64,000 nucleotides of DNA, taken from Eledone cirrhosa. Lineage: Eukaryota. How positions within the stretch are numbered: the first letter of the stretch is position 1; each line of letters begins with the position of its first letter. Of this stretch, positions 25,479 through 54,122 are shown piece by piece. The stretch spans positions 31,744,001-31,808,000 of the forward strand of contig OZ024749.1 in the NCBI GenBank assembly GCA_964016885.1, written 5' to 3'. Both the position numbers and the translations under genes were made by a program. The notes beneath the pieces were generated by a model. It worked only from the letters and a program-made list of their open reading frames with translations, was not told the DNA's origin and ran no database searches.

Positions 25479-25805
25479 TATATTAGACTATCGATATCGA
25501 TTAGCCAAGTGGTGACCGGAAAGACTTGCTCCACAGATGAGTTTATGACAGGAAGTCAAATTACGTCAGATGTATCATTTCATCGCCAGAGGGCGCTATT
25601 GTGCAAGCAGTTCAGATGTCCACCACTTGATGGCTGGACACGTTTCCGGTCATTCAACTGTGTAATTTGAATTGTATACTGGTGTTATACGGCGGATATT
25701 GGTGTTATACACTCACAAGCATAAAAATATACATCTGTGCCTATATGTGAATCGACACACAAGTACATGTATAGGTATGCATGTTCTAACATACATATGC
25801 ATATG

Positions 25806-25842
<37 letters not shown>

Positions 25843-25845
25843 TTA

Positions 25846-26915
25846 CCCCAAACATAAACTACTGGTGGTTACTAACCGGTTTCCTCAATTTAGACGAGGA
25901 CAACCTCATCTCAATAGGGAAGGCATCCGGCGACGCGTTCAGTGGAACGAGCATCGAAGTTCTGACCCAAATAAGGCCAGAACGCATCGCCCAAATCCCT
26001 GAGCGCGTCATGCTGGATGACCGTACCCACCTCAACATTATTGTGGAGGGTAGGCGTCCCTCCTGTTACCTCTGTGGCAATAGAGGTCACCTGAGGGCTG
26101 CCTGTCCCCAGCTCACACAGAAAAAAACACTGCTACCAACACCAACACCACCCCAACTACAACAACAAAAACAACCACAACAACAACAAAAACCAACAAC
26201 CCCACCACCACCACCACAACAACAACAACAACAAACACGTGAAAAAATAACACAGAATACTGTCCCACCCAATCCCTCCCCACCCAAAACAAATACAAAA
26301 ACACGCACACCGCAAACACTACCAGAAAACATACCCCTCCCACCCAACAAGGAAGACGAACCTCTTTCGTCGCAAGACGAAAAAGATCCCTTCCAACAAG
26401 TAAAAAGAAAGAAGAGGAGACGCACCACAGACACACATGTTAACTTTAATCCCCCCCAAGAGAACACAAACTACACACAAACCACCCCTCCCTGTCACAC
26501 AACACTAACTGCTACACAAAAAAAGACATTACAATACACATACATGAACACAGACAACAAAGAATTACGGAAAACAATTTCAGCAAACCCTTCGGTCCAA
26601 ACCGAAGGGCCAAACTTTATAACTGCTGTGGGACTACCTCATTTGAAAATGATAAAAGTCCCAATGCACTTGTACAAAACACTGAAAATAAATTTCACGG
26701 AGGACGTGGGCCCCCCCTGCGCCAAACCAATCAACCGCGTCCTCCTAAAAAATTTCACCCCCCCACCTCACCCAGACACCCACTCAACGACAAACACCCC
26801 AACCCCACAACACACCGATGCCCCTTCACTTCCACAAACCACAACCCCACCCAACAACCCATCCCCAACCAGCATGGAAATTGAGCGGCCCGTTTCCCGG
26901 GACGCAGAGAGGTAA
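25846..26915 (+). CDS. Tx1-type ORF1, 5'-truncated, with CCHC zinc knuckle
   Basis: CYLCGNRGHLRAAC; colinear with ORF1 of copy B; the N-terminus in the ORF track is flanking microsatellite. Confidence 0.85.
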
Positions 26916-26939
26916 GTGCCTTTTCTCTTTACCACCAAC

Positions 26940-29900
26940 ATGGCTGTGCTAAGAGTAGGGTGTCTAAATGCGCGTGGCCTGGGCTCGTCTTGGAAGCAAG
27001 CAATGCTTCTAAATGACCTCAGGTCACAATCTATAAATGTGATGGTTATCTGCGAGGCCCGGATCAGCAGCATGCGACAGCTAGCCCCCACCTTTGACGA
27101 CTTTGAGATGCACGCATCTCTCTGTCAGCCCGGAGGTGGGGGTGGGGTTGTCGTTCTGCTGCAAAAACATATGGGCCTTGCAACACAGATAGTTCACTTG
27201 GACCCAGGGGGTCGACTGGTGGTGCTGGACCTTGGCAGTGGTGAAGGTAGAGCCCTTAGGCTGATAGCCGCATATGCCCCTTTTGGGACAGAGCGGCCCG
27301 ACTTTTTCCAGCGTCTGGAGTCTTTTCTAGGGACGTCCCGTTCCCTGCTTTTAGTGGGGGATTGGAATGGTATCCTGGATGCACGTTGGGACTATGCAGG
27401 GGCATGTCCCGATAGAGAGGGGTGCAACAGCCTCAAGGGGTTACTCGGCCGATTTGACCTGGCCGATAGATTTCGACTAGATTTTCCGACGGTGCCAACC
27501 TGGTCTTGGTCAAATCGCAGCGGATCATCTAGATCGTACCTAGACAGATTTTTAGTTAGAAATAAGGACAGGGACTTTTTAAGTTGTCCAGAAATGCTCA
27601 TGGTTGGCTATTCAGACCACAAGTTGGTGACCTGCATGGTCAACCTTGATAGAACGCATAGACAGGGCCCCGGTTACTGGAAGCTCAACTTGTCCTTGCC
27701 GGCAAGTAGAGCCTACAGGAATCGGATTAGTACGTTAGTTAAGGAACGGTTGACTGGAGCGATCGTCAACAGCAGGTGGTGGGTATCTCTAAAGAGAGAG
27801 ATTAGAGTAGTCTCCATTGAATTTAGTAAGGTTCTAGCTGCGGATAGGAATAGGAAGGAAAGGGAGCTAATAGATAGAGTAGAAGAGGCAATTAGAAGCG
27901 GCGACGTGGCCAGAGTGCTAGCGTCGAGAACGGCTTTGAGCCAGTTTTTCGACGCGAAGCACGAAGGCTGCGTTGTCCGAAGTAAAATACGTGCTCTAGG
28001 GAACGAGGGGGCCAAAGCTGTTAGCTGGGCCCGCGTGACAGAGGCCAACAGTGGAACTAAATCCACCATCCGGTCTTTGCGAGACCTGGATGGACGGGCG
28101 ATTCTTGAGCCTAAGCAGATGTGTGAGGCCTGTCAAAGGCACTTTGCCCAACTGTTCGGGAGGGGCGGGGAGCCGGTTGGAAACGTGGACTTCGGTCCAT
28201 ACCTCGACGGCCTGCCGCGCCTCTCGGACAGGGAGGCGAAGTCTTGCGAGGAGCCGATTTCGGCCGCTGAGATAGAGGACGTGCTGGGCCAATGCGGCAA
28301 ACGCAAATCCCCGGGTCTCGATGGTCTTCCTTACGAATTATATCTAGCTATGCCGGACTTGTTCCCCGATCTCCTCGAGGCGGTCTACTGCAACTGGCAA
28401 CAGAACGGGAGAATTCCCTGTACTGTGACCAAGGGCGTAGTCACGCTAGTGAGGAAGGACGAGAACAAGGGGGACGAAATAAGTAACTTCAGGCCCATAA
28501 CTCTGCTAAATACAGAGTTACAGATTTTGGCCAAGGTGCTAGCAAAGAGGTTGGCGCTTGTCGTGGGCAACCTGGTGGGAGATGCGCAGACATGCGCTAT
28601 CCCGTCCAGGTCCATCCATGACAACCTCCACCTCATGCGATACATCATAGAGAGGGTTGGGAACGAACCCGGCTTTGGTGGGGCTCTGATCAACTTGGAT
28701 CAATCTAAGGCGTTCGATAGGGTCGACCATGGTTACCTGGATGCGGTGCTAGCGGCGGCAGGCTTCGGACCCGTTTTCAGGGGCTGGATCACTGCTATGC
28801 ACAGCAGCCGCATCTGCTCTAGGGTCAAGGTGAACGGCTACCTCTCGGAGCCGTTCAAAATCGCGCGGTCCATCCGACAAGGGTGCCCTCTCTCCTCCCT
28901 TCTGTATGTGTTGACTCTCGAGCCACTACTGCGGAAGTTGGAGTTGTTGCAGGGCATCCCTTTGGAACCGGGATTGCGGAAAGCGGTGTCGGCCTACGCC
29001 GATGATGTGACAGTAATGGTGTCGACGGCCTCCGAAATCGAGGCGGTCGGCAACTTACTGGAGGAGTACGAAAAGTTCACAGGGGCTAAGCTGAACCGGG
29101 ACAAGTCGATCGGTTTGCAACTCGGCACGTGGAGGGGCAGACCGATGCCCTCCGATGGCGTCGTCGGACGCTGGACGGAGGGCCCGGTGAAGTTGCTCGG
29201 GGTCTGGTTCGGACCGGACCTCCAGGTGGAGAAAAACTGGGCGGAGGTTACGAACAGGGTGTTTGCACTGACCCAGAAGTGGGCCAGTTGCAAACTATCC
29301 CTGAAAGGTCGGGCGGAGGTGGCGAACACTTATATAGCGTCCGTCATCTACTACCGCCTGACCGTAGTGCCCTGCCCAAGGGAAACCCTCACCAAGATGG
29401 AGCGCGCGCTCTTCCAATTCCTTTGGAAGGGGCGGGCTCCTATGGTGAGGAGATCCATCTGCTGTCAACACCCTTCGAAAGGAGGGCTGGGGATGCCGTG
29501 GCTAATGATGCGTAAACACGCATTAAGGCTACGGCACCTCTACGTATTCCTCACCGGACAACCGGTGTGGGCCTCGTTTGTGAGACGAACCTTTCCCAGA
29601 CTCGTCTCACTCACCGAGCTGCAATCCTGGGTCAAGCAAAGACCGAGAAAACTGGGCGCCTGGCACACTGAGTGTGCCCAGGCGCTCACCGCCCTCTGGC
29701 AGGCGGATCCGGTTATCAGTGGAGACTCCACCGCAACATTCTATAGAGGGCTGGTACGCAGCAGGTGCGACGACGCCCTCGGAGAAGCCCTAGACATGGA
29801 GGAGGACGAACTGGCCAGCCTGTTCGGTAGGACATTCAGCCCGGGACCTATGGACAACTTCCAGAAGTCCCTGGCCTGGCAGTGCTACCGAGGGGCTTTA

Positions 29901-30377
29901 CCCGTTCGAGAAAGGCTCTACAGACACGGGCGCCCGGGTAGGGACCCCGCCAAAAAGATCTGTCCCAGATGCGTGTGCGACGAGGAAACCGTTGCACACG
30001 CATTGATACACTGCTCGGGCGTAGCCGATCTGTGGGGCTATGTCGAACAACTGCTGTCAAGGGTGGGACCGATCCGGTTGACCACCGAGTCTATTGTAAT
30101 GATCAAGCCGCCTCCCCCCTTCAAAGATGAAGCAGAGGCGGTGTTTCTGTGCGTAATAGCCATGGCGAAAGAGGTTGTATGGTGGACGCGTCTGAAAGGA
30201 CTGAGGTCAGGCACCTTTCTCTCTGGCCAACAACTGGTCCGTTTCTTCCGATATCATTTCGGAAGAAGGATCAGGATGGAGAGAGAGGTGCTGCACCCCA
30301 GTCGTTTTTATGAAAGGTGGGTGAAAGTGGCGAGAATGGCCCGTGTGAATGGGCCTTCTCTTTACATAAGCCTGTAG
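26940..30377 (+). CDS. ORF2: APE endonuclease, reverse transcriptase and C-terminal Cys/His domain (open)
   Basis: LNARGL, GDWN, YLDRF, SDHK (APE); KSPGLDG, NFRPITLLN, KAFDRV, RQGCPLS, YADD (RT); CPRC..ETVAHALIHC. Confidence 0.95.
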   Translation: MAVLRVGCLNARGLGSSWKQAMLLNDLRSQSINVMVICEARISSMRQLAPTFDDFEMHASLCQPGGGGGVVVLLQKHMGLATQIVHLDPGGRLVVLDLGSGEGRALRLIAAYAPFGTERPDFFQRLESFLGTSRSLLLVGDWNGILDARWDYAGACPDREGCNSLKGLLGRFDLADRFRLDFPTVPTWSWSNRSGSSRSYLDRFLVRNKDRDFLSCPEMLMVGYSDHKLVTCMVNLDRTHRQGPGYWKLNLSLPASRAYRNRISTLVKERLTGAIVNSRWWVSLKREIRVVSIEFSKVLAADRNRKERELIDRVEEAIRSGDVARVLASRTALSQFFDAKHEGCVVRSKIRALGNEGAKAVSWARVTEANSGTKSTIRSLRDLDGRAILEPKQMCEACQRHFAQLFGRGGEPVGNVDFGPYLDGLPRLSDREAKSCEEPISAAEIEDVLGQCGKRKSPGLDGLPYELYLAMPDLFPDLLEAVYCNWQQNGRIPCTVTKGVVTLVRKDENKGDEISNFRPITLLNTELQILAKVLAKRLALVVGNLVGDAQTCAIPSRSIHDNLHLMRYIIERVGNEPGFGGALINLDQSKAFDRVDHGYLDAVLAAAGFGPVFRGWITAMHSSRICSRVKVNGYLSEPFKIARSIRQGCPLSSLLYVLTLEPLLRKLELLQGIPLEPGLRKAVSAYADDVTVMVSTASEIEAVGNLLEEYEKFTGAKLNRDKSIGLQLGTWRGRPMPSDGVVGRWTEGPVKLLGVWFGPDLQVEKNWAEVTNRVFALTQKWASCKLSLKGRAEVANTYIASVIYYRLTVVPCPRETLTKMERALFQFLWKGRAPMVRRSICCQHPSKGGLGMPWLMMRKHALRLRHLYVFLTGQPVWASFVRRTFPRLVSLTELQSWVKQRPRKLGAWHTECAQALTALWQADPVISGDSTATFYRGLVRSRCDDALGEALDMEEDELASLFGRTFSPGPMDNFQKSLAWQCYRGALPVRERLYRHGRPGRDPAKKICPRCVCDEETVAHALIHCSGVADLWGYVEQLLSRVGPIRLTTESIVMIKPPPPFKDEAEAVFLCVIAMAKEVVWWTRLKGLRSGTFLSGQQLVRFFRYHFGRRIRMEREVLHPSRFYERWVKVARMARVNGPSLYISL

Positions 30378-31064
30378 GTGGAAAAGAGGAAGGAACGAGG
30401 GAGAACCCCCTCTCTGTGCTCCTGAGGAAAAGGGTTGCACACTTTTTTCGGGGGTGTGTGCGACCCCCCAAGGCGTCTCCTCTCTATTGAGGATTTTGTT
30501 AAAAATTTTATTTTTGTTATATCTTATTTTATTTTTATATTTTGTTATTGCCTCCTCCTTATTGAGGACGCCTTTTTGTGTAAACTCCCCCCTTTGTACT
30601 TGTCCCACTTTTGATGCCCTAGTGGCAAATAAAAGAAACTTATCTATTTATCATATAATCTAGCTGTCGTCTGTTCTACAGCGTAGATGTAATTCACTTC
30701 GCGCAGAAGTTTTGTTCAAATTTATTGCGGAAATTTTGTAAGTTCAAATTTAATTTTGATACTATTGTGTAGCTTGACCTCCCGTCTGAACTGTCAGGCG
30801 GTGGGTCAGCTCATCTTTACCCCTCCTAGGGGTGAAAAACCTGTTTTTAAAAATTTTGTGGCAAAAAAAATTTCAATCGTCTGACAGAAATGTTAAACGA
30901 AGCGAACGAAAATAGTAGTGGGGGGACAGCGGTAAGAGTTGTAAGCTCGCACGTTTTAGTCCCCCCCCCCTTCCTTCCCAACTAACGTCATAGAGAAGGA
31001 AGGAAAAAATAAAATAAAAACAGACGAATCTTCGGAGAAAAATGACGAAAACACAAATCTGGAC

Positions 31065-32805
31065 ATGGATTCCAACAACGAAAAAAAAAAATTTGAAAAA
31101 TTGCATGACAATATTAATACCACAAACAAAGACACAACAAACACAAAAATAACATTTGAAAACAACATCATAACAGAAAGCAAAGCAGACGACAAAGTCA
31201 ACACCAACAAGATTTCATTTGCACAAACAACAAAGAAATCTTTGACATATATACCTGAAAATATTTCAGATGTGGCACAAAGAATCACAGACGCAAAACA
31301 ATACATAAGTGAAGGAGAGAATGGTATTTTATCGGTAAAAATACCTCAAGAACTCACCAAAGACATTGAAAGTCGAACGGTCATGTTCCGCACCATTAAC
31401 AACACTTCAAAAAAACCTGAACAGCCAACTCAAGCAGAAATCAAAACAGTACTTACAGAAGTACTTAATGAAACCACTTTCATAAGAAAAGACAGACTGT
31501 ACGGAAGCCTAGCGATTATTATGAAGAACGAATCGGCGGCAAAAAAATGTGCTTTGTCACCGATTCGTTCGAAAGATTTTACCTTTTATCCATCTTATAT
31601 GGGTAAAAGAACTCAACGCATATGGCTGGATGCAATGATGCCAGATGTGGACTACTGCTGGCTCATAGCTGGCTTCATCGATCCAGTGAATGACAACGTG
31701 ATTTCCATTGGGAAAACCACAGGCAATGCGTTCAGTGGAACAGGTATAGAGCTTGTAGTGCAAATGAAGCCTGAACGCATCGCCCAAATACCCGACAGAA
31801 TCCTATTAGAGGGCCACGAGTATATAAACATTAGCGTAGAGGGGAGAAGGCCGTCCTGTCATATCTGTGCAAGGCAGAGGGCACCTGAAGGACGCTTGTC
31901 ACCAACTCAACAATAAGAAAACCCTGCTACCAACACCAGCTCCACCACCACCACCGCAACAGATAAACAAACAACAAAACTCAGTCCCACCCAACCCGTC
32001 CCTCAGTAAAACTACACCACCACCACAACACAAACAGTCACAACACATTACCCCAAAACAAAATACAGGCCCACCCAACCTCTCACTCAATAAAACAACA
32101 CAACCACCGCAGCCACAACACACAACACAGTCTAACATAGTGACATCCATCTCCCCCACAAAGAAAACCAACACGGAAACATTACCAGCAAACATACCTC
32201 TTCCCTCCAACACTGAAGATAACCCAACGAATTCGGAGGAAGAAACGGAGTCCTTCAGACAGATTAAAAGGAAAAAAAGAAAACATGTGCAAAACACACA
32301 AGGCCAAACAACCCCCACCCAAATGTCAACACAATCCAACAAAACACAAAACACCCCTCCAGCAACAAACCAAACCAAACCTGCCCCTCCCCTCTTCGAA
32401 ACACTCACACCATCCGAAAAAAAGACATTACACTATACTTACATCAACAGAAACAATAATAAATTAAATGAACTCATAAACAATAATCCTTCGGTACAAA
32501 CCGAAGGTGTAAACTTTGTTTCTTCAGAAAACTACCCACATTTAAAATTAATAAAGATCCCAATGAACCTCTACCAAAAACTAAAAAAGGATTTTAAGGA
32601 GGACGTAGGACCACCCTCTGTCAAACCCATAAACCGCGTCCTACTAAAATGCTTTCCCCCTCCCCTTCCCCTCCCCAACACAACTCCAAACACCCCAGCC
32701 CCACCACACACTGACGACCCCACACCACCACAAGACACACCTTCACCCAACACCCCCGACCCCATGGAAGTCGTGCGACCCGAACCCCGGGAAGCAGAAA
32801 GGTAG
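31065..32805 (+). pseudogene. Tx1 ORF1 with a frameshift in the zinc knuckle (about 31870)
   Basis: CHIC / GRGHLKDAC split over two frames; homologous to copy A ORF1. Confidence 0.85.
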
Positions 32806-32838
32806 GTCTCTACACTCTCCTTTGGCTCTGCCGCCCAC

Positions 32839-35800
32839 ATGGATGTGTTAAGAGTAGGATGTTTGAATGCACGTGGCCTGGGCTCAATTTGGAAGCAAGC
32901 AAAGCTTCTAAATGACCTCAGGTCATGTGGTATAAATGTAATGGTTATCTGTGAGACTCGGATCAGCGTCGTGCGGCAGCTGGCCCCTACCTTCGATGAC
33001 TTTGAGGTGCATGCATCTCTCTGTCAACCTGGAGGTGGGGGTTGGGTTGTCGTACTGCTGCAAAAACACCTGGGTCTTGCCGTACAGGTTGTTCACTCGG
33101 ACCCGGAGGGTCGTTTGTTGGTGCTAGACGTTGGCAGTAGTGAAGGTGCGGCCTTGAGACTGGTTGCCGTCTACTCCCCTTTCGGAGCTGAACGGCCCGA
33201 CTTCTTCCAGCGTTTGGAGACTTTTCTGGGAACGTCGCGTTCCCTGCTTCTAGCGGGGGATTGGAATGACATCCTAGATGCACGTTGGGACTATGCAGGA
33301 GCATGTCCTAATAGAGGGGGGTGTAACAGCCTCAAGGGGTTACTCGACCGTTTTAACTTGGTCGATAGATATCGACTAGATTTTCCAACTGTGCCTACCT
33401 GGACTTGGAGAAACCACAGTGGTCAATCTAGATCGTACTTAGATAGATTCTTAGTTAGAAGTAAGGATAGGGACATATTAAGCTGTCCAGAAATGCGCAC
33501 AGTTGGCTATACGGATCACAAATTAGTGACCTGCGTAGTCAATCTCGAGAAAACACATAAACAGGGTCCCGGTTACTGGAAACTTAATTTGTCTTTACCG
33601 GCAAAAGAGACTTACAGAAATCGGATTAGCAGATTAGTTAAGGAGAGGTTGACGGGTGCAATCGTCAACAACCGATGGTGGGCATCTCTCAAAAGAGAGA
33701 TTAGAACAGAATCAATAAGTTATAGCAAGATGTTAGCTGCCGATAGGAATAGAAACGAGAAAGAATTAACAGGTAAATTAGAAGAGGCAATCAAGAGCGA
33801 AGATGTGGCCAGAGTGCTGGCATCGAGGACGGCCTTGAACCAGTTTTTCGATGCAAAGCACGAAGGCTGCGTCATTCGAAGTAAAATACGTGCTCTAGGT
33901 AATGAGGGGGCCAAAGCCGTTGGCTGGGCCCGCGTGACAGAAGCTAAGAGTGGAAATCGATCCACCATCCGGTCGTTGCAAGACGAGAATGGACGGGTGA
34001 TCCGGGAGCCTAAGCAGATGTGCGAGGCCTTTCAAAGGCACTTTGCCAGATTATTCGGGGGAGGCGAGGGTCCGGGCGGGGACGTGGATTTCGGTCCATA
34101 CCTCGACGGCCTGCCGCGTCTCTCGAGCGAAGAGGCAGAGTCCTGCGAGGGACCAATCTCGGCTGATGAGATCGGAGATGCGCTGAGCCAACGCAGCAGA
34201 CGCAAATCTCCAGGTCTCGTGGTATACCTTACGAACTTTATTTAGCAATGCCGGTCTTCTTCTCCGAACTCCTCGAAGCGGTCTACTGCAATTGGCAGCA
34301 GAACGGGAGAATTCCTTGTTCTGTAGCCAAGGGCGTAGTCTCGCTGGTGAGGAAGGACGAGAACAAGGGGGATAGTATAAATAATTTTCGGCCCATAACC
34401 CTGCTAAACACAGAGTTAAAGATTTTGGCCAAGGTGTTAGCAAAGAAGTTGGCGCTTGTCGTGGGTAGCCTGGTGGGAGATGCGCAGACATGTGCTATCC
34501 CATCCAGGTCCATTCACGATAACCTCCACCTCATGCGATACATCATAGAGAGGGTTGGCAACAAACCCGGCTTCGGTGGGGCCCTGATCAACTTGGATCA
34601 GTCTAAGGCCTTCGATAGGGTCGACCATGGTTACCTGGATGCGGTGCTAGCGGCGGCTGGGTTCGGTACTGCTTTCAGAGGCTGGATCACTGCCTTACAT
34701 AGCAACCACATCTGTTCTAGGATCAAGGTGAACGGCTACCTTTCGAAGCCGTTCGAAATCACACGATCCATTCGACAGGGGTGCCCTCTCTCCTCCCTTC
34801 TGTATGTATTGACTCTCGAGCCTTTACTGAGGAAGTTAGAGTTGTTGCAGGGTATCCCCCTGGAACCAGGATTGAGCAAAGCGGTGTCGGCCTACGCCGA
34901 TGACGTAACAGTAATGGTATCGACCGACTCGGAAATCGAGGCGATCGGTACCTTACTGGAGGATTACGAAAGGTTGTCAGGAGCGAAACTGAACCGGGAA
35001 AAAACCATCGGGCTGCAACTCGGAACGTGGAGAGGCAGACCGATGCCTCCCGACGGTGTCGTCGGACACTGGACGGAGGGCCCGGTAAAGTTGCTTGGGG
35101 TCTGGTTTGGACCGGACCTCCAGGTGGAAAAGAACAGGGACGAGGTTACGAACAAGGTGTTTGCACTAACCCAGAAATGGGCCAAGTGTAAGCTGTCCCT
35201 AAAAGGCCGGGCGGAGGTGGCGAACATTTACATAGCGTCTGTCACTTACTACCGCCTGACTATCGTGCCTTGCCCTAAGGAAACACTCACCACCATGGAA
35301 CGCATGCTCTTCCAATTTCTTTGGAAGAAGCGCCCTCCTATGGTGAGAAGATCCATCTGCTGCCAACAACCTTCGAAAGGAGGACTGGGGATGCTGTGGT
35401 TGATGATGCGTAGGCACGCATTAAGGCTACGGCACCTACAGGTATTCCTCACTGGTCAACCGGTGTGGGCTCCGTTCGTGAAACGAGCCTTTCCGAGACT
35501 CGTCTCGCTCACCGAGCTGCAGTCCTGGGTCAAGCAAAGATCCGGAAAACTGGGAGACTGGCACACTGAGTGTGCTCAGGCGCTCAGGGCTCTCTGGCAA
35601 GCGGGCCAGGCCATCGGTGGAGAATCCACCTCATCATTCTATAGAGGGCTGGTGGCTAGCAGGGGCGATGACACCCTTGGAGAGTCGCTGGACATGGAAG
35701 AGGACGAACTGGCCAGCCTGTTCGGTAGGACTTTCGGCCCAGGACCAATGGACAACTTCCAGAAGTCACTGGCCTGGCAGTGCTACCGGGGGGCTCTACC

Positions 35801-36275
35801 CGTTCGAGAGAGGCTCTACAGACACGGGCGCCCGGGCAGGGATCCCTCAAAAAAGATTTGCCCTAGATGCGTGCGTCACGAAGAAACAGTTGCGCACGCA
35901 TTGATGCAATGTCCGGGTGTGGCTGATCTGTGGGGCTACGCCGAACGACTGCTGTCGCGGGTGGCGCCGATTCAATTGACCGCCGAGTCCGTGATGACAA
36001 TCAAACCGCCTCCCCTCTTCACAAAGGAAGCAAAGGCGGTTTTTCTGTGCGTAATAGCCATGTTGAAAGAGGTTGTTTGGTGGACACGATTGAAAGGTCT
36101 GAGGTCAGGCAACTTCCTCTCTGGCCATAGTCTGGTCTACTTCTTCCGATATCACTTCGGAAGAAGGATAAGAATGGAGAGAGAGGTGCTTGGCTACAGG
36201 CAGTTTTATGAAAGGTGGGTGATAGTGGCGAGAATGGCTCGTGTAAATGGACCTTCTCTGTATACCATCCTGTAG
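32839..36275 (+). pseudogene. Tx1 ORF2 (APE-RT) with a 1-nt deletion near 34219
   Basis: GGTCTCGTGGT here versus GGTCTCGATGGT in copy A; both halves align with copy A ORF2. Confidence 0.9.
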
Positions 36276-36489
36276 GTAAAGAAGTGAAGGAGAGGGGAGC
36301 ACCTTCTCCATGTGCTCCCCGGGCAAAGGATTGCACACTTTTTCGGGGGTGTGTGCAACTCCCATCACGTCCCCTCCCTTTTGAGGTTATTTTCGATTAT
36401 TTTCATTTTATACCCTTTTTACTCGATTATATGTAAACTCCCCCTTTGTATTTGTCCCTTCTTTTTATGCCTTCATGGTAAATAAAGAA

Positions 36490-36540
<51 letters not shown>

Positions 36541-39424: not shown

Positions 39425-40531
<1,107 letters not shown>

Positions 40532-52876: not shown

Positions 52877-53854
52877 TTTCTTTTATTTGCCACTAGGGCA
52901 TCAAAAGTGGGACAAGTACAAAGGGGGGAGTTTACACAAAAAGGCGTCCTCAATAAGGAGGAGGCAATAACAAAATATAAAAATAAAATAAGATATAACA
53001 AAAAATAAATTTTTAACAAAATCCTCAATAGAGAGGAGGCGCCTTGGGGGGTCGCACACACCCCCGAAAAAGGTGTGCAACCCTTCTCCTCAGGAGCACA
53101 GAGAAGGGGTGCTCCCTTGGTCTTTCATCTTCCTCACCTATAGTCTGATGTAGAGTGAAGGCCCATTCACACGGGCCATTCTCGCCACTTTCACCCATCT
53201 TTCATAGAAACGGCTGGGGTGCAGCACCTCTCTCTCCATCCTGATCCTTCTTCCGAAATGATATCGGAAGAAACGGACCAGTTGTTGGCCAGAGAGAAAG
53301 GTGCCCGACCTCAGTCCTTTCAGACGCGTCCACCATACAACCTCTTTCGCCATGGCTATTACGCACAGAAACACCGCCTCTGCTTCATCTTTGAAGGGGG
53401 GAGGCGGCTTGATCATTACAATAGACTCGGTGGTCAACCGGATCGGTCCCACCCTTGACAGCAGTTGTTCGACATAGCCCCACAGATCGGCTACGCCCGA
53501 GCAGTGTACTAATGCGTGTGCAACGGTTTCCTCGTCGCACACGCATCTGGGACAGATCTTTTTGGCGGGGTCCCTACCCGGGCGCCCGTGTCTGTAGAGC
53601 CTTTCTCGAACGGGTAAAGCCCCTCGGTAGCACTGCCAGGCCAGGGACTTCTGGAAGTTGTCCATAGGTCCCGGGCTGAATGTCCTACCGAACAGGCTGG
53701 CCAGTTCGTCCTCCTCCATGTCTAGGGCTTCTCCGAGGGCGTCGTCGCACCTGCTGCGCACCAGCCCTCTATAGAATGTTGCGGTGGAGTCTCCACTGAT
53801 ACCGGATCCGCCTGCCAGAGGGCGGTGAGCGCCTGGGCACACTCAGTGTGCCAG
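52877..53854 (-). mobile_element. Tx1 copy C, 5'-truncated, subfamily of copy A
   Basis: Near-identical to 29659-30638; 3' end runs into (GATA)n at 52770-52873. Confidence 0.93.
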
Positions 53855-53861
53855 AGATATG

Positions 53862-53950
53862 TTTCTTTATTAGCCGCAGGGGCACAAAAGAAGGGGACAA
53901 ATACAAAGGGGGAAGTTTACATACAATAAAAACGTGTAAAATGTTATCAC
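53862..53950 (-). mobile_element. Tx1 3' UTR stub, third variant
   Basis: TGTAAACTTCCCCCTTTGTATTTGTCCCCTTCTTTTGTGCC..AATAAAGAAA. Confidence 0.7.
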
Positions 53951-53984
<34 letters not shown>

Positions 53985-53986
53985 TA

Positions 53987-54073
53987 TTTCTTTATTTACC
54001 ATAAAGGCATAAAAAGAAGGGACAAATACAAAGGGGGAGTTTACATAAAATCGAGTAAAAAGGGTATAAAATG
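53987..54073 (-). mobile_element. Tx1 3' UTR stub, subfamily of copy B
   Basis: Matches 36404-36490; (GATA)n on both sides. Confidence 0.85.

Positions 54074-54122
<49 letters not shown>

Follow-up and report, generated by a model that had tools for sequence, protein, structure and literature searches.

The analysed stretch, hereafter the window, comprises 64,000 nucleotides (nt) of the Eledone cirrhosa genome (assembly GCA_964016885.1, 3.0 Gb; contig OZ024749.1, positions 31,744,001 to 31,808,000 of the forward strand) and contains three copies (A, B and C) of a retrotransposon lacking long terminal repeats (non-LTR) and having two open reading frames (ORFs). The feature of interest is a U1-type 5' splice donor overlapping the stop codon of ORF1, together with a candidate acceptor at the stop codon of ORF2; joining the two would remove the whole of ORF2. 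Copy A is 5'-truncated and is the only copy in the window with an unbroken ORF2. Copy B is near full length and carries one frameshift in each ORF, while copy C is a 5'-truncated 3' fragment without ORF1. The features, in window positions, are as follows.

25850..26915, plus strand: copy A, 3' part of ORF1 with a putative zinc knuckle (ORF 25725-26915), starting after an ATCT-type microsatellite
26909..26917, plus strand: copy A, putative U1-type 5' splice donor; cut after 26911, in phase 2 of the last Arg codon, with the TAA stop inside
26918..26939, plus strand: copy A, pyrimidine-rich spacer from the donor to the ORF2 ATG, from the sequence
26940..30377, plus strand: copy A, ORF2, the proposed intron body, with APE endonuclease, reverse transcriptase (RT) and zf-RVT, from the ORF list and domain search
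30369..30378, plus strand: copy A, two candidate acceptors, AG 30369-30370 and AG 30376-30377
30378..30640, plus strand: copy A, 3' untranslated region (UTR) with a poly(A) signal at 30628-30633, from the sequence
30960..32805, plus strand: copy B, ORF1, near full length, with a frameshift near 31871 (two overlapping ORFs; one-base difference from other copies)
32799..32807, plus strand: copy B, putative donor with the TAG stop inside; cut after 32801
32839..36275, plus strand: copy B, ORF2 with one frameshift near 34219, from the ORF list and comparison with other copies
36273..36279, plus strand: copy B, candidate acceptor on the ORF2 stop, then one base and TAA in the phase of ORF1 (1 codon to the stop)
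36276..36540, plus strand: copy B, 3' UTR with a poly(A) signal at 36481-36486 and a tetranucleotide tail, from the sequence
52878..53860, minus strand: copy C, ORF2 end and 3' UTR, with a candidate acceptor at 53140-53137 followed by TGA, from the ORF list and sequence

An earlier note on this stretch had placed the donors at 26910-26917 (copy A) and 32800-32807 (copy B), each holding the ORF1 stop, and the motif TAG/G (the slash marking the cut) at 30375-30378 in A, 36273-36276 in B and 53140-53137 on the minus strand in C; all of these were confirmed in the sequence. Its further claim, that joining the sites rebuilds the exact end of ORF1, holds for copy B, where Arg is followed by TAA, but not for copy A, where use of AG 30376-30377 would give Trp after the junction and a read-on of 95 codons. 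Copy C has the TGA without an ORF1 partner in the window. As read from the sequence, splicing to the other AG of copy A, 30369-30370, would let ORF1 run for 2 more codons and terminate at the stop of ORF2 itself.

The ORF2 product contains the domains PF03372, PF00078 and PF13966 (APE endonuclease, RT and C-terminal zinc domain), and by this domain set the element is an L1/Tx1-group non-LTR retrotransposon. The best match in the PDB was human L1 ORF2p (E 1e-48), with R2 reaching only E 1e-18. ORF1 of the family lies separately upstream and encodes 625-696 amino acids, with matches to PF00098 (zinc knuckle) below the curated cut-off only (E 0.0018 in copy A). In an RT tree that included no named Tx1 reference, the element grouped with P0001 and an Argonauta protein (support 100/99), and the closest named protein was that of Argonauta hians (62%); relatives 40% identical were seen at the protein level. 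The best 40 matches are 98-100% identical, and at least 8,154 ORF2 ends in the genome match one pattern; the family is large and young. The 3' ends of most of 30 B-type copies run into tetranucleotide or TA repeats, in which tail and target were not told apart. A report on Octopus vulgaris, with a single mention of Tx1, gives 13 recently active L1-Tx1 families (PMC13282606).

The families, labelled A-P in this analysis, were gathered via ORF2 and not via the donor, except A and B. The comparison used 16 representatives with both ends, whose ORF2 identity goes down to 63-68% and which split into two clades with 100/100 support. Representative I and the H'/J recombinant are single loci; for L, N and I, homology or fewer than 200 open codons served to assign the phase of ORF1. 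Families have swapped their 5' and 3' halves (L151/L198, L201, L136): an H'-type front is joined to a J-type end with both ORFs open, I, H and H' have one common 3' end, and the 5' and 3' trees disagree.

The donor at the end of ORF1 was present in both clades. Columns -1, +1, +2, +5 and +6 are invariant in 16/16 representatives and columns +3/+4 are purines in all 16, with -3 and +7 variable, which is the footprint expected of U1 pairing. Scored against the generally known U1 donor consensus, the site matches at 8-9 of 9 positions in 15 representatives, as the donor of a U2-type spliceosomal intron should, the exception being I (6 of 9), and in 15/16 it ranks best or within the top three U1 matches among approximately 250-290 GT sites. 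The donor of copy A has an 8/9 match, equalled by 2 of its 249 GT sites, and that of family H matches at 9 of 9. The copy B donor site was matched in 29/30 loci, L019 being left unmatched by the script. The stop codon that the donor encloses differs between families, with TAA, TAG and TGA all occurring. The spacer columns +9 to +24 are mostly C/T in the 16 representatives, and the flanks and ORF1 tails are otherwise unlike across the clades sharing the five invariant columns.

The donor was also retained where the phase of ORF1 shifts. Family D has it in phase 0 in 7/8 long-open copies, with ORF1 reading 12 codons further, whereas J and O have it in phase 1, with the stop 2 codons on (20/21 and 11/13 copies, respectively; 308 exact O copies were found). 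As a distant control, 25 of 80 loci with metagenome L1/Tx1-like elements reached the ORF2 start (about 5 of these 25 ORF1 calls being short and unsure), and 0/25 had such a donor on the ORF1 stop; a looser donor-like match near that stop occurred in 3/25. In L143, a single rearranged locus with 45% identity, the donor is absent before the ORF2 start. From these alignments, a lineage-wide splice-donor signal at the ORF1/ORF2 boundary appears real and is well supported.

Two explanations that bear on the donor itself were considered. It is improbable, in our judgement, that the motif is not a U1 site and serves as an ORF1-stop/ORF2-restart translation signal or a DNA-level protein site, its donor likeness arising because stop codons fit the donor consensus. 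Between the motif and the ORF2 start there are indeed 25-47 nt, which include a pyrimidine spacer; the lack of an ATG at the usual ORF2 start of family D would make restart unconventional there, and an Arg-ending ORF1 in all phase-2 families could fix the G pair. In human L1, moreover, the conservation of one donor has been put down to a RUNX3 site (PMC5860796). However, the invariant columns fit the U1 footprint and persist with the stop moved 3 to 33 nt away (D, G, J and O). Shared ancestry only, with a chance donor and acceptor inherited without selection, seems very improbable. One lineage is ancestral to all families, and recombination among them, as seen in the differing 5' and 3' trees, agrees with such an origin, but the five invariant columns across clades with otherwise unlike surroundings do not.

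Three further observations concern this boundary. The usual ORF2 start of family D (L104-L128, L131-L134, L146, L149, L150) has ATA in place of ATG (ACA in L149), and in most copies ORF1 reads through the donor so that its TAG stop overlaps the first ORF2 codon, a stop-start overlap without AUG. In family G (L413, L425, L426), the bases after the ORF2 stop form a near-perfect donor mirroring that at the ORF1 end, which resembles a site of recursive splicing or a proto-splice site that has been duplicated. In two distant metagenome elements (L212, L247, L229) a hexamer resembling a donor immediately precedes the stop of ORF1; this may be chance or a parallel case.

The candidate acceptor is conserved to a lesser extent. 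An AG lies on the ORF2 stop in 13/16 representatives. Read in the phase of ORF1, 9 of these 13 reach a stop no more than 3 codons later, compared with 5/26 in the other two phases (Fisher p 0.004; the families are related). The conservation across the family that the earlier note proposed as a check is complete in the 16 representatives for the donor GT and partial for the AG and the post-acceptor stop. In the phase-2 families B, E, K, L and P the stop lies 1 codon past the AG, starting one base after it, and in the phase-1 families G and J it lies 2 codons past the AG, giving native length. Family O has its stop 1 codon past the AG in ORF1's phase in 11/12 paired copies, and D has it after 3 codons. 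The stops of O and P follow phases 1 and 2, respectively, within one clade. Families B and D lack the AG that in A, F and N lies 7 nt upstream of the terminal one, and keep the downstream stop; the acceptor context of copy B was found in 29/30 loci, the remaining locus having an A-type end. This phase-tracking stop is the best evidence for the idea that ORF2 could act as an intron. The first 30 nt past the ORF2 stop are purine-rich in all 16 representatives (0.63-0.97 vs 0.29-0.41; in copy A 0.87 vs 0.34 further on). Exonic enhancers are purine-rich, and the stretch might act as an enhancer or else belong to a structure in the 3' UTR.

The reading we favour, tentatively and at slightly less than an even chance, is that the conserved U1-type donor is spliced in a minority of transcripts to an AG at or just before the ORF2 stop, giving an ORF1-only mRNA. 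U1 would bind the donor at the end of ORF1. Only a minority of the transcripts, or those made outside the germline, would have this donor paired with the AG that closes ORF2, and a short terminal exon, its poly(A) signal lying 200-250 nt on, would favour the pairing. The spliced product would keep the normal 3' UTR and provide an extra supply of ORF1p, while most of the RNA would stay unspliced as the template for ORF2p and for copying. Having no ORF2p in cis, the spliced RNA would seldom serve for copying. Bound to this donor, U1 may in addition protect the full-length RNA against early polyadenylation, as in the plant Copia element EVD. The wider proposition, that the whole RT gene is treated as a retained intron and that the two ORF ends evolve together in reading phase across 3.4 kb, keeping the stop of the spliced mRNA in place, we hold with a little more doubt.

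A number of observations weigh against this reading, beginning with the acceptor. In H, H' and I the ORF2 stop is a TAA and offers no AG, yet H-type copies with an open ORF2 are numerous and the H donor is a full match to U1. The only candidate in H is a GAG 13 nt upstream of the stop, GAG being a poor acceptor, and I offers no solution. In A, F, N and one recombinant no close stop in ORF1's phase follows the terminal AG; other A-type copies have the same acceptor context (20/20) and would read on for 78 codons in 17/20 and for 62-120 in the others. In favour of the reading, A, F and N each have a further AG situated 7 nt upstream, from which ORF1 would run only 2 codons to a stop, by count in N and by inspection of the sequence in A and F; but the pattern of upstream AG and stop also arises from an ancestor with both features after any single loss. 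On our reading of the tree, about 4 independent matches (the phase-2 clade, G/J, O and D) face 4-5 failures (A, F, N, the H-type end and one recombinant), and the p value of 0.004 is therefore overstated. N carries the 3' end of O, yet its ORF1 is still in phase 2; with either AG permitted, N and O stop early in all three phases, so that this case does not discriminate. The terminal AG is never top-scoring, 3-38 of approximately 260 AGs per element being higher by a crude pyrimidine score, and the acceptor pyrimidines sit within conserved ORF2 codons. The acceptor is thus less certain than the donor, appearing moderately strong and only partly conserved.

The genome was also searched for copies lacking ORF2, with probes covering A/B/E/F, D, H and G/J and with K, L, N, O and P outside the search. 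The processed copies lacking exactly ORF2 that the earlier note had proposed were not found by any of these probes. The donor is retained at 2,364 A/B-type ORF1 ends. The 38 A/B-type non-standard matches, which differ at +1, +3 or +6 and of which 3 figure in the count of 2,364 as well, bring the total to about 2,400; every one of them runs on through the spacer to ORF2 and not to the 3' UTR. There were likewise no ORF2-less copies among 47 H-type non-standard matches, which include one microhomology deletion, two inversions and two unrelated flanks, nor among 1 D-type and 19 G/J-type ones, and a gapped copy B probe gave 0 matches. The upper 95% bound on A/B-type spliced copies is 0.12%. Passages on human L1 report 11 trans-dependent spliced copies of 6,609 (PMC5860796), a rate that would predict approximately 4 copies here (P(0) 0.02), and describe ORF1-only RNA as mobilisable in trans in human cells (PMC2666806). 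An ORF2-less RNA needs ORF2p in trans, and the human benchmark is therefore loose. Abundant germline splicing is unlikely.

One copy (L303) with a join from the donor position into ORF2 was rejected as a splicing product, as it shows a 3-base microhomology and no AG, and was classified as a deletion. It belongs to five copies (L330, L343, L303, L511, L339) in which an inversion, a deletion or a cut coincides exactly with the donor position of H or G type; as probes anchored at the donor picked them, they are no measure of enrichment there.

Joints between donor and acceptor were looked for in contigs of four sequencing runs of unrecorded kind, contigs being a form of data in which rare forms are dropped. 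None of the 15 contig joints listed, out of 229, connects the donor to the acceptor. A contig of run X4 bridges the acceptor of copy B unspliced (36006-36490), as does one of run X5, and this shows the presence of the unspliced form while saying nothing on the absence of a spliced one. In X4 the depth over copy B was 75-180 in ORF1 vs 32-42 at the ORF2 start, with the reverse in X1; these values were left unused, as contig depth cannot rank parts of a gene. The same limit applies to the X4 depth of 2303 at the 5' end of copy B (30830-31184), against 30-190 over the rest, which might stem from a non-autonomous partner or from short transcripts of the 5' end.

The main rival retains the U1 site but not the far acceptor. 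It supposes that the donor is genuine and not paired with the AG of the ORF2 stop, that it suppresses cryptic polyadenylation or splices elsewhere (to another acceptor or a downstream exon), and that the AG is a by-product of the TAG stop. We regard it as a serious possibility, though on balance rather unlikely. It accounts for the donor being kept in H, H' and I despite the missing terminal AG and for the processed copies not found in the tested families, and the EVD report, in the part concerned, describes a conserved U1 site that blocks premature termination (PMC5580714). A poly(A) hexamer lies 225-250 nt upstream of the donor in copies A and B (26687 and 32550), although ORF1 is A-rich and such hexamers may be due to chance. 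What this rival leaves unexplained is why the stop after the AG fits the phase of ORF1 in both deep clades, and why TAG/G ends ORF2 in 13/16 representatives as opposed to 0/11 distant L1/Tx1-like elements. The earlier note's central proposal, ORF2 as an excisable intron, keeps the support of donor conservation and the phase-tracking stop; it is weakened by an acceptor and a +2 stop that are not universal and by the failure to find an ORF2-less copy. Overall, the lineage-wide donor signal appears real, and the partner acceptor is plausible.

Three other candidates were rejected. A short intron of 42-55 nt fusing ORF1 to ORF2, from the donor to the AG of an Arg codon early in ORF2, would vanish from new copies, and 0/17 matches show it; the near-case L511 misses the place by one base and has the look of a deletion at a microhomology. 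Translation reading through the stop of ORF1 was dismissed because the frame of ORF2 relative to ORF1 takes all three values. HUSH evasion was set aside as a cause of the footprint, since HUSH protection is described, in the part of the source concerned, as independent of a 5' splice site (PMC8770142).

In the window, copies and bare 3'-end fragments of different subfamilies form a tail-to-head array with tetranucleotide repeats between them (52878-54075 on the minus strand, 25805-25850, 30640-30660 and 36491-36540), and at many of the fetched loci a second family member lies within 6 kb. The arrangement suggests insertion into microsatellites or into one another's tails. The window also holds a fragment of another RT-type ORF end (39560-40385), which by eye we take to be CR1/L2-like.

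The excess of ORF1p over ORF2p in bicistronic long interspersed nuclear elements (LINEs) is usually ascribed to poor translational restart. A donor at the ORF junction would add a second, RNA-level route to this excess, as in Copia LTR elements, and if the favoured reading is true, it would represent a programmed subgenomic RNA in a LINE, with the ORF1p:ORF2p ratio set by splicing. Even with the far acceptor wrong, a lineage-wide U1 site in a LINE would be a new handle on the maintenance of full-length RNA. As the family is large and young, thousands of strong donors would be scattered over the host genome. The literature covered, which takes in few subscription journals and probably no repeat-database reports, gave no account of a LINE that conserves a donor at the end of ORF1 or splices out all of ORF2.

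The comparisons with known systems draw on the relevant passages of the published reports. The closest likeness is the shGAG transcript of the Arabidopsis Ty1/Copia element EVD, in which a conserved U1 donor also stands at the end of the structural gene, and optional splicing, seen in RNA, yields a structural-protein-only mRNA whose counterpart here is predicted from sequence (PMC5580714). One U1 site in EVD has both roles, splicing and protection of the full-length RNA (PMC5580714). Unlike the present LINE, EVD is an LTR element with an intron around the protease region and with splicing coupled to premature termination, the outcome being an excess of the structural protein (PMC5580714); in the LINE the predicted intron takes up ORF2 as a whole (3.4 kb), and the mRNA would retain its normal 3' UTR. 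The human L1 SpIREs (PMC5860796) and SpORF2 (PMC2896524) also show splice sites within an L1-group LINE, but their donors lie in the 5' UTR and their products lose ORF1 or the promoter, not ORF2. These human products leave processed copies, at approximately 2%, and are termed dead ends (PMC5860796, PMC2896524), whereas none was found in the families tested here. The half-L1 HAL1 resembles the predicted product in being ORF1-only and of the L1 group, and differs in being a genomic non-autonomous element (PMC5753468), while no copy with the exact junction was found in the tested families. Finally, the Tx1-clade elements Kibi and Koshi share two ORFs and APE and RT domains with the element described here, and insertion at microsatellites may be a further likeness, but they are fish elements found at TC/TTC repeats, and splicing is unmentioned in the passages concerned (PMC4494074).

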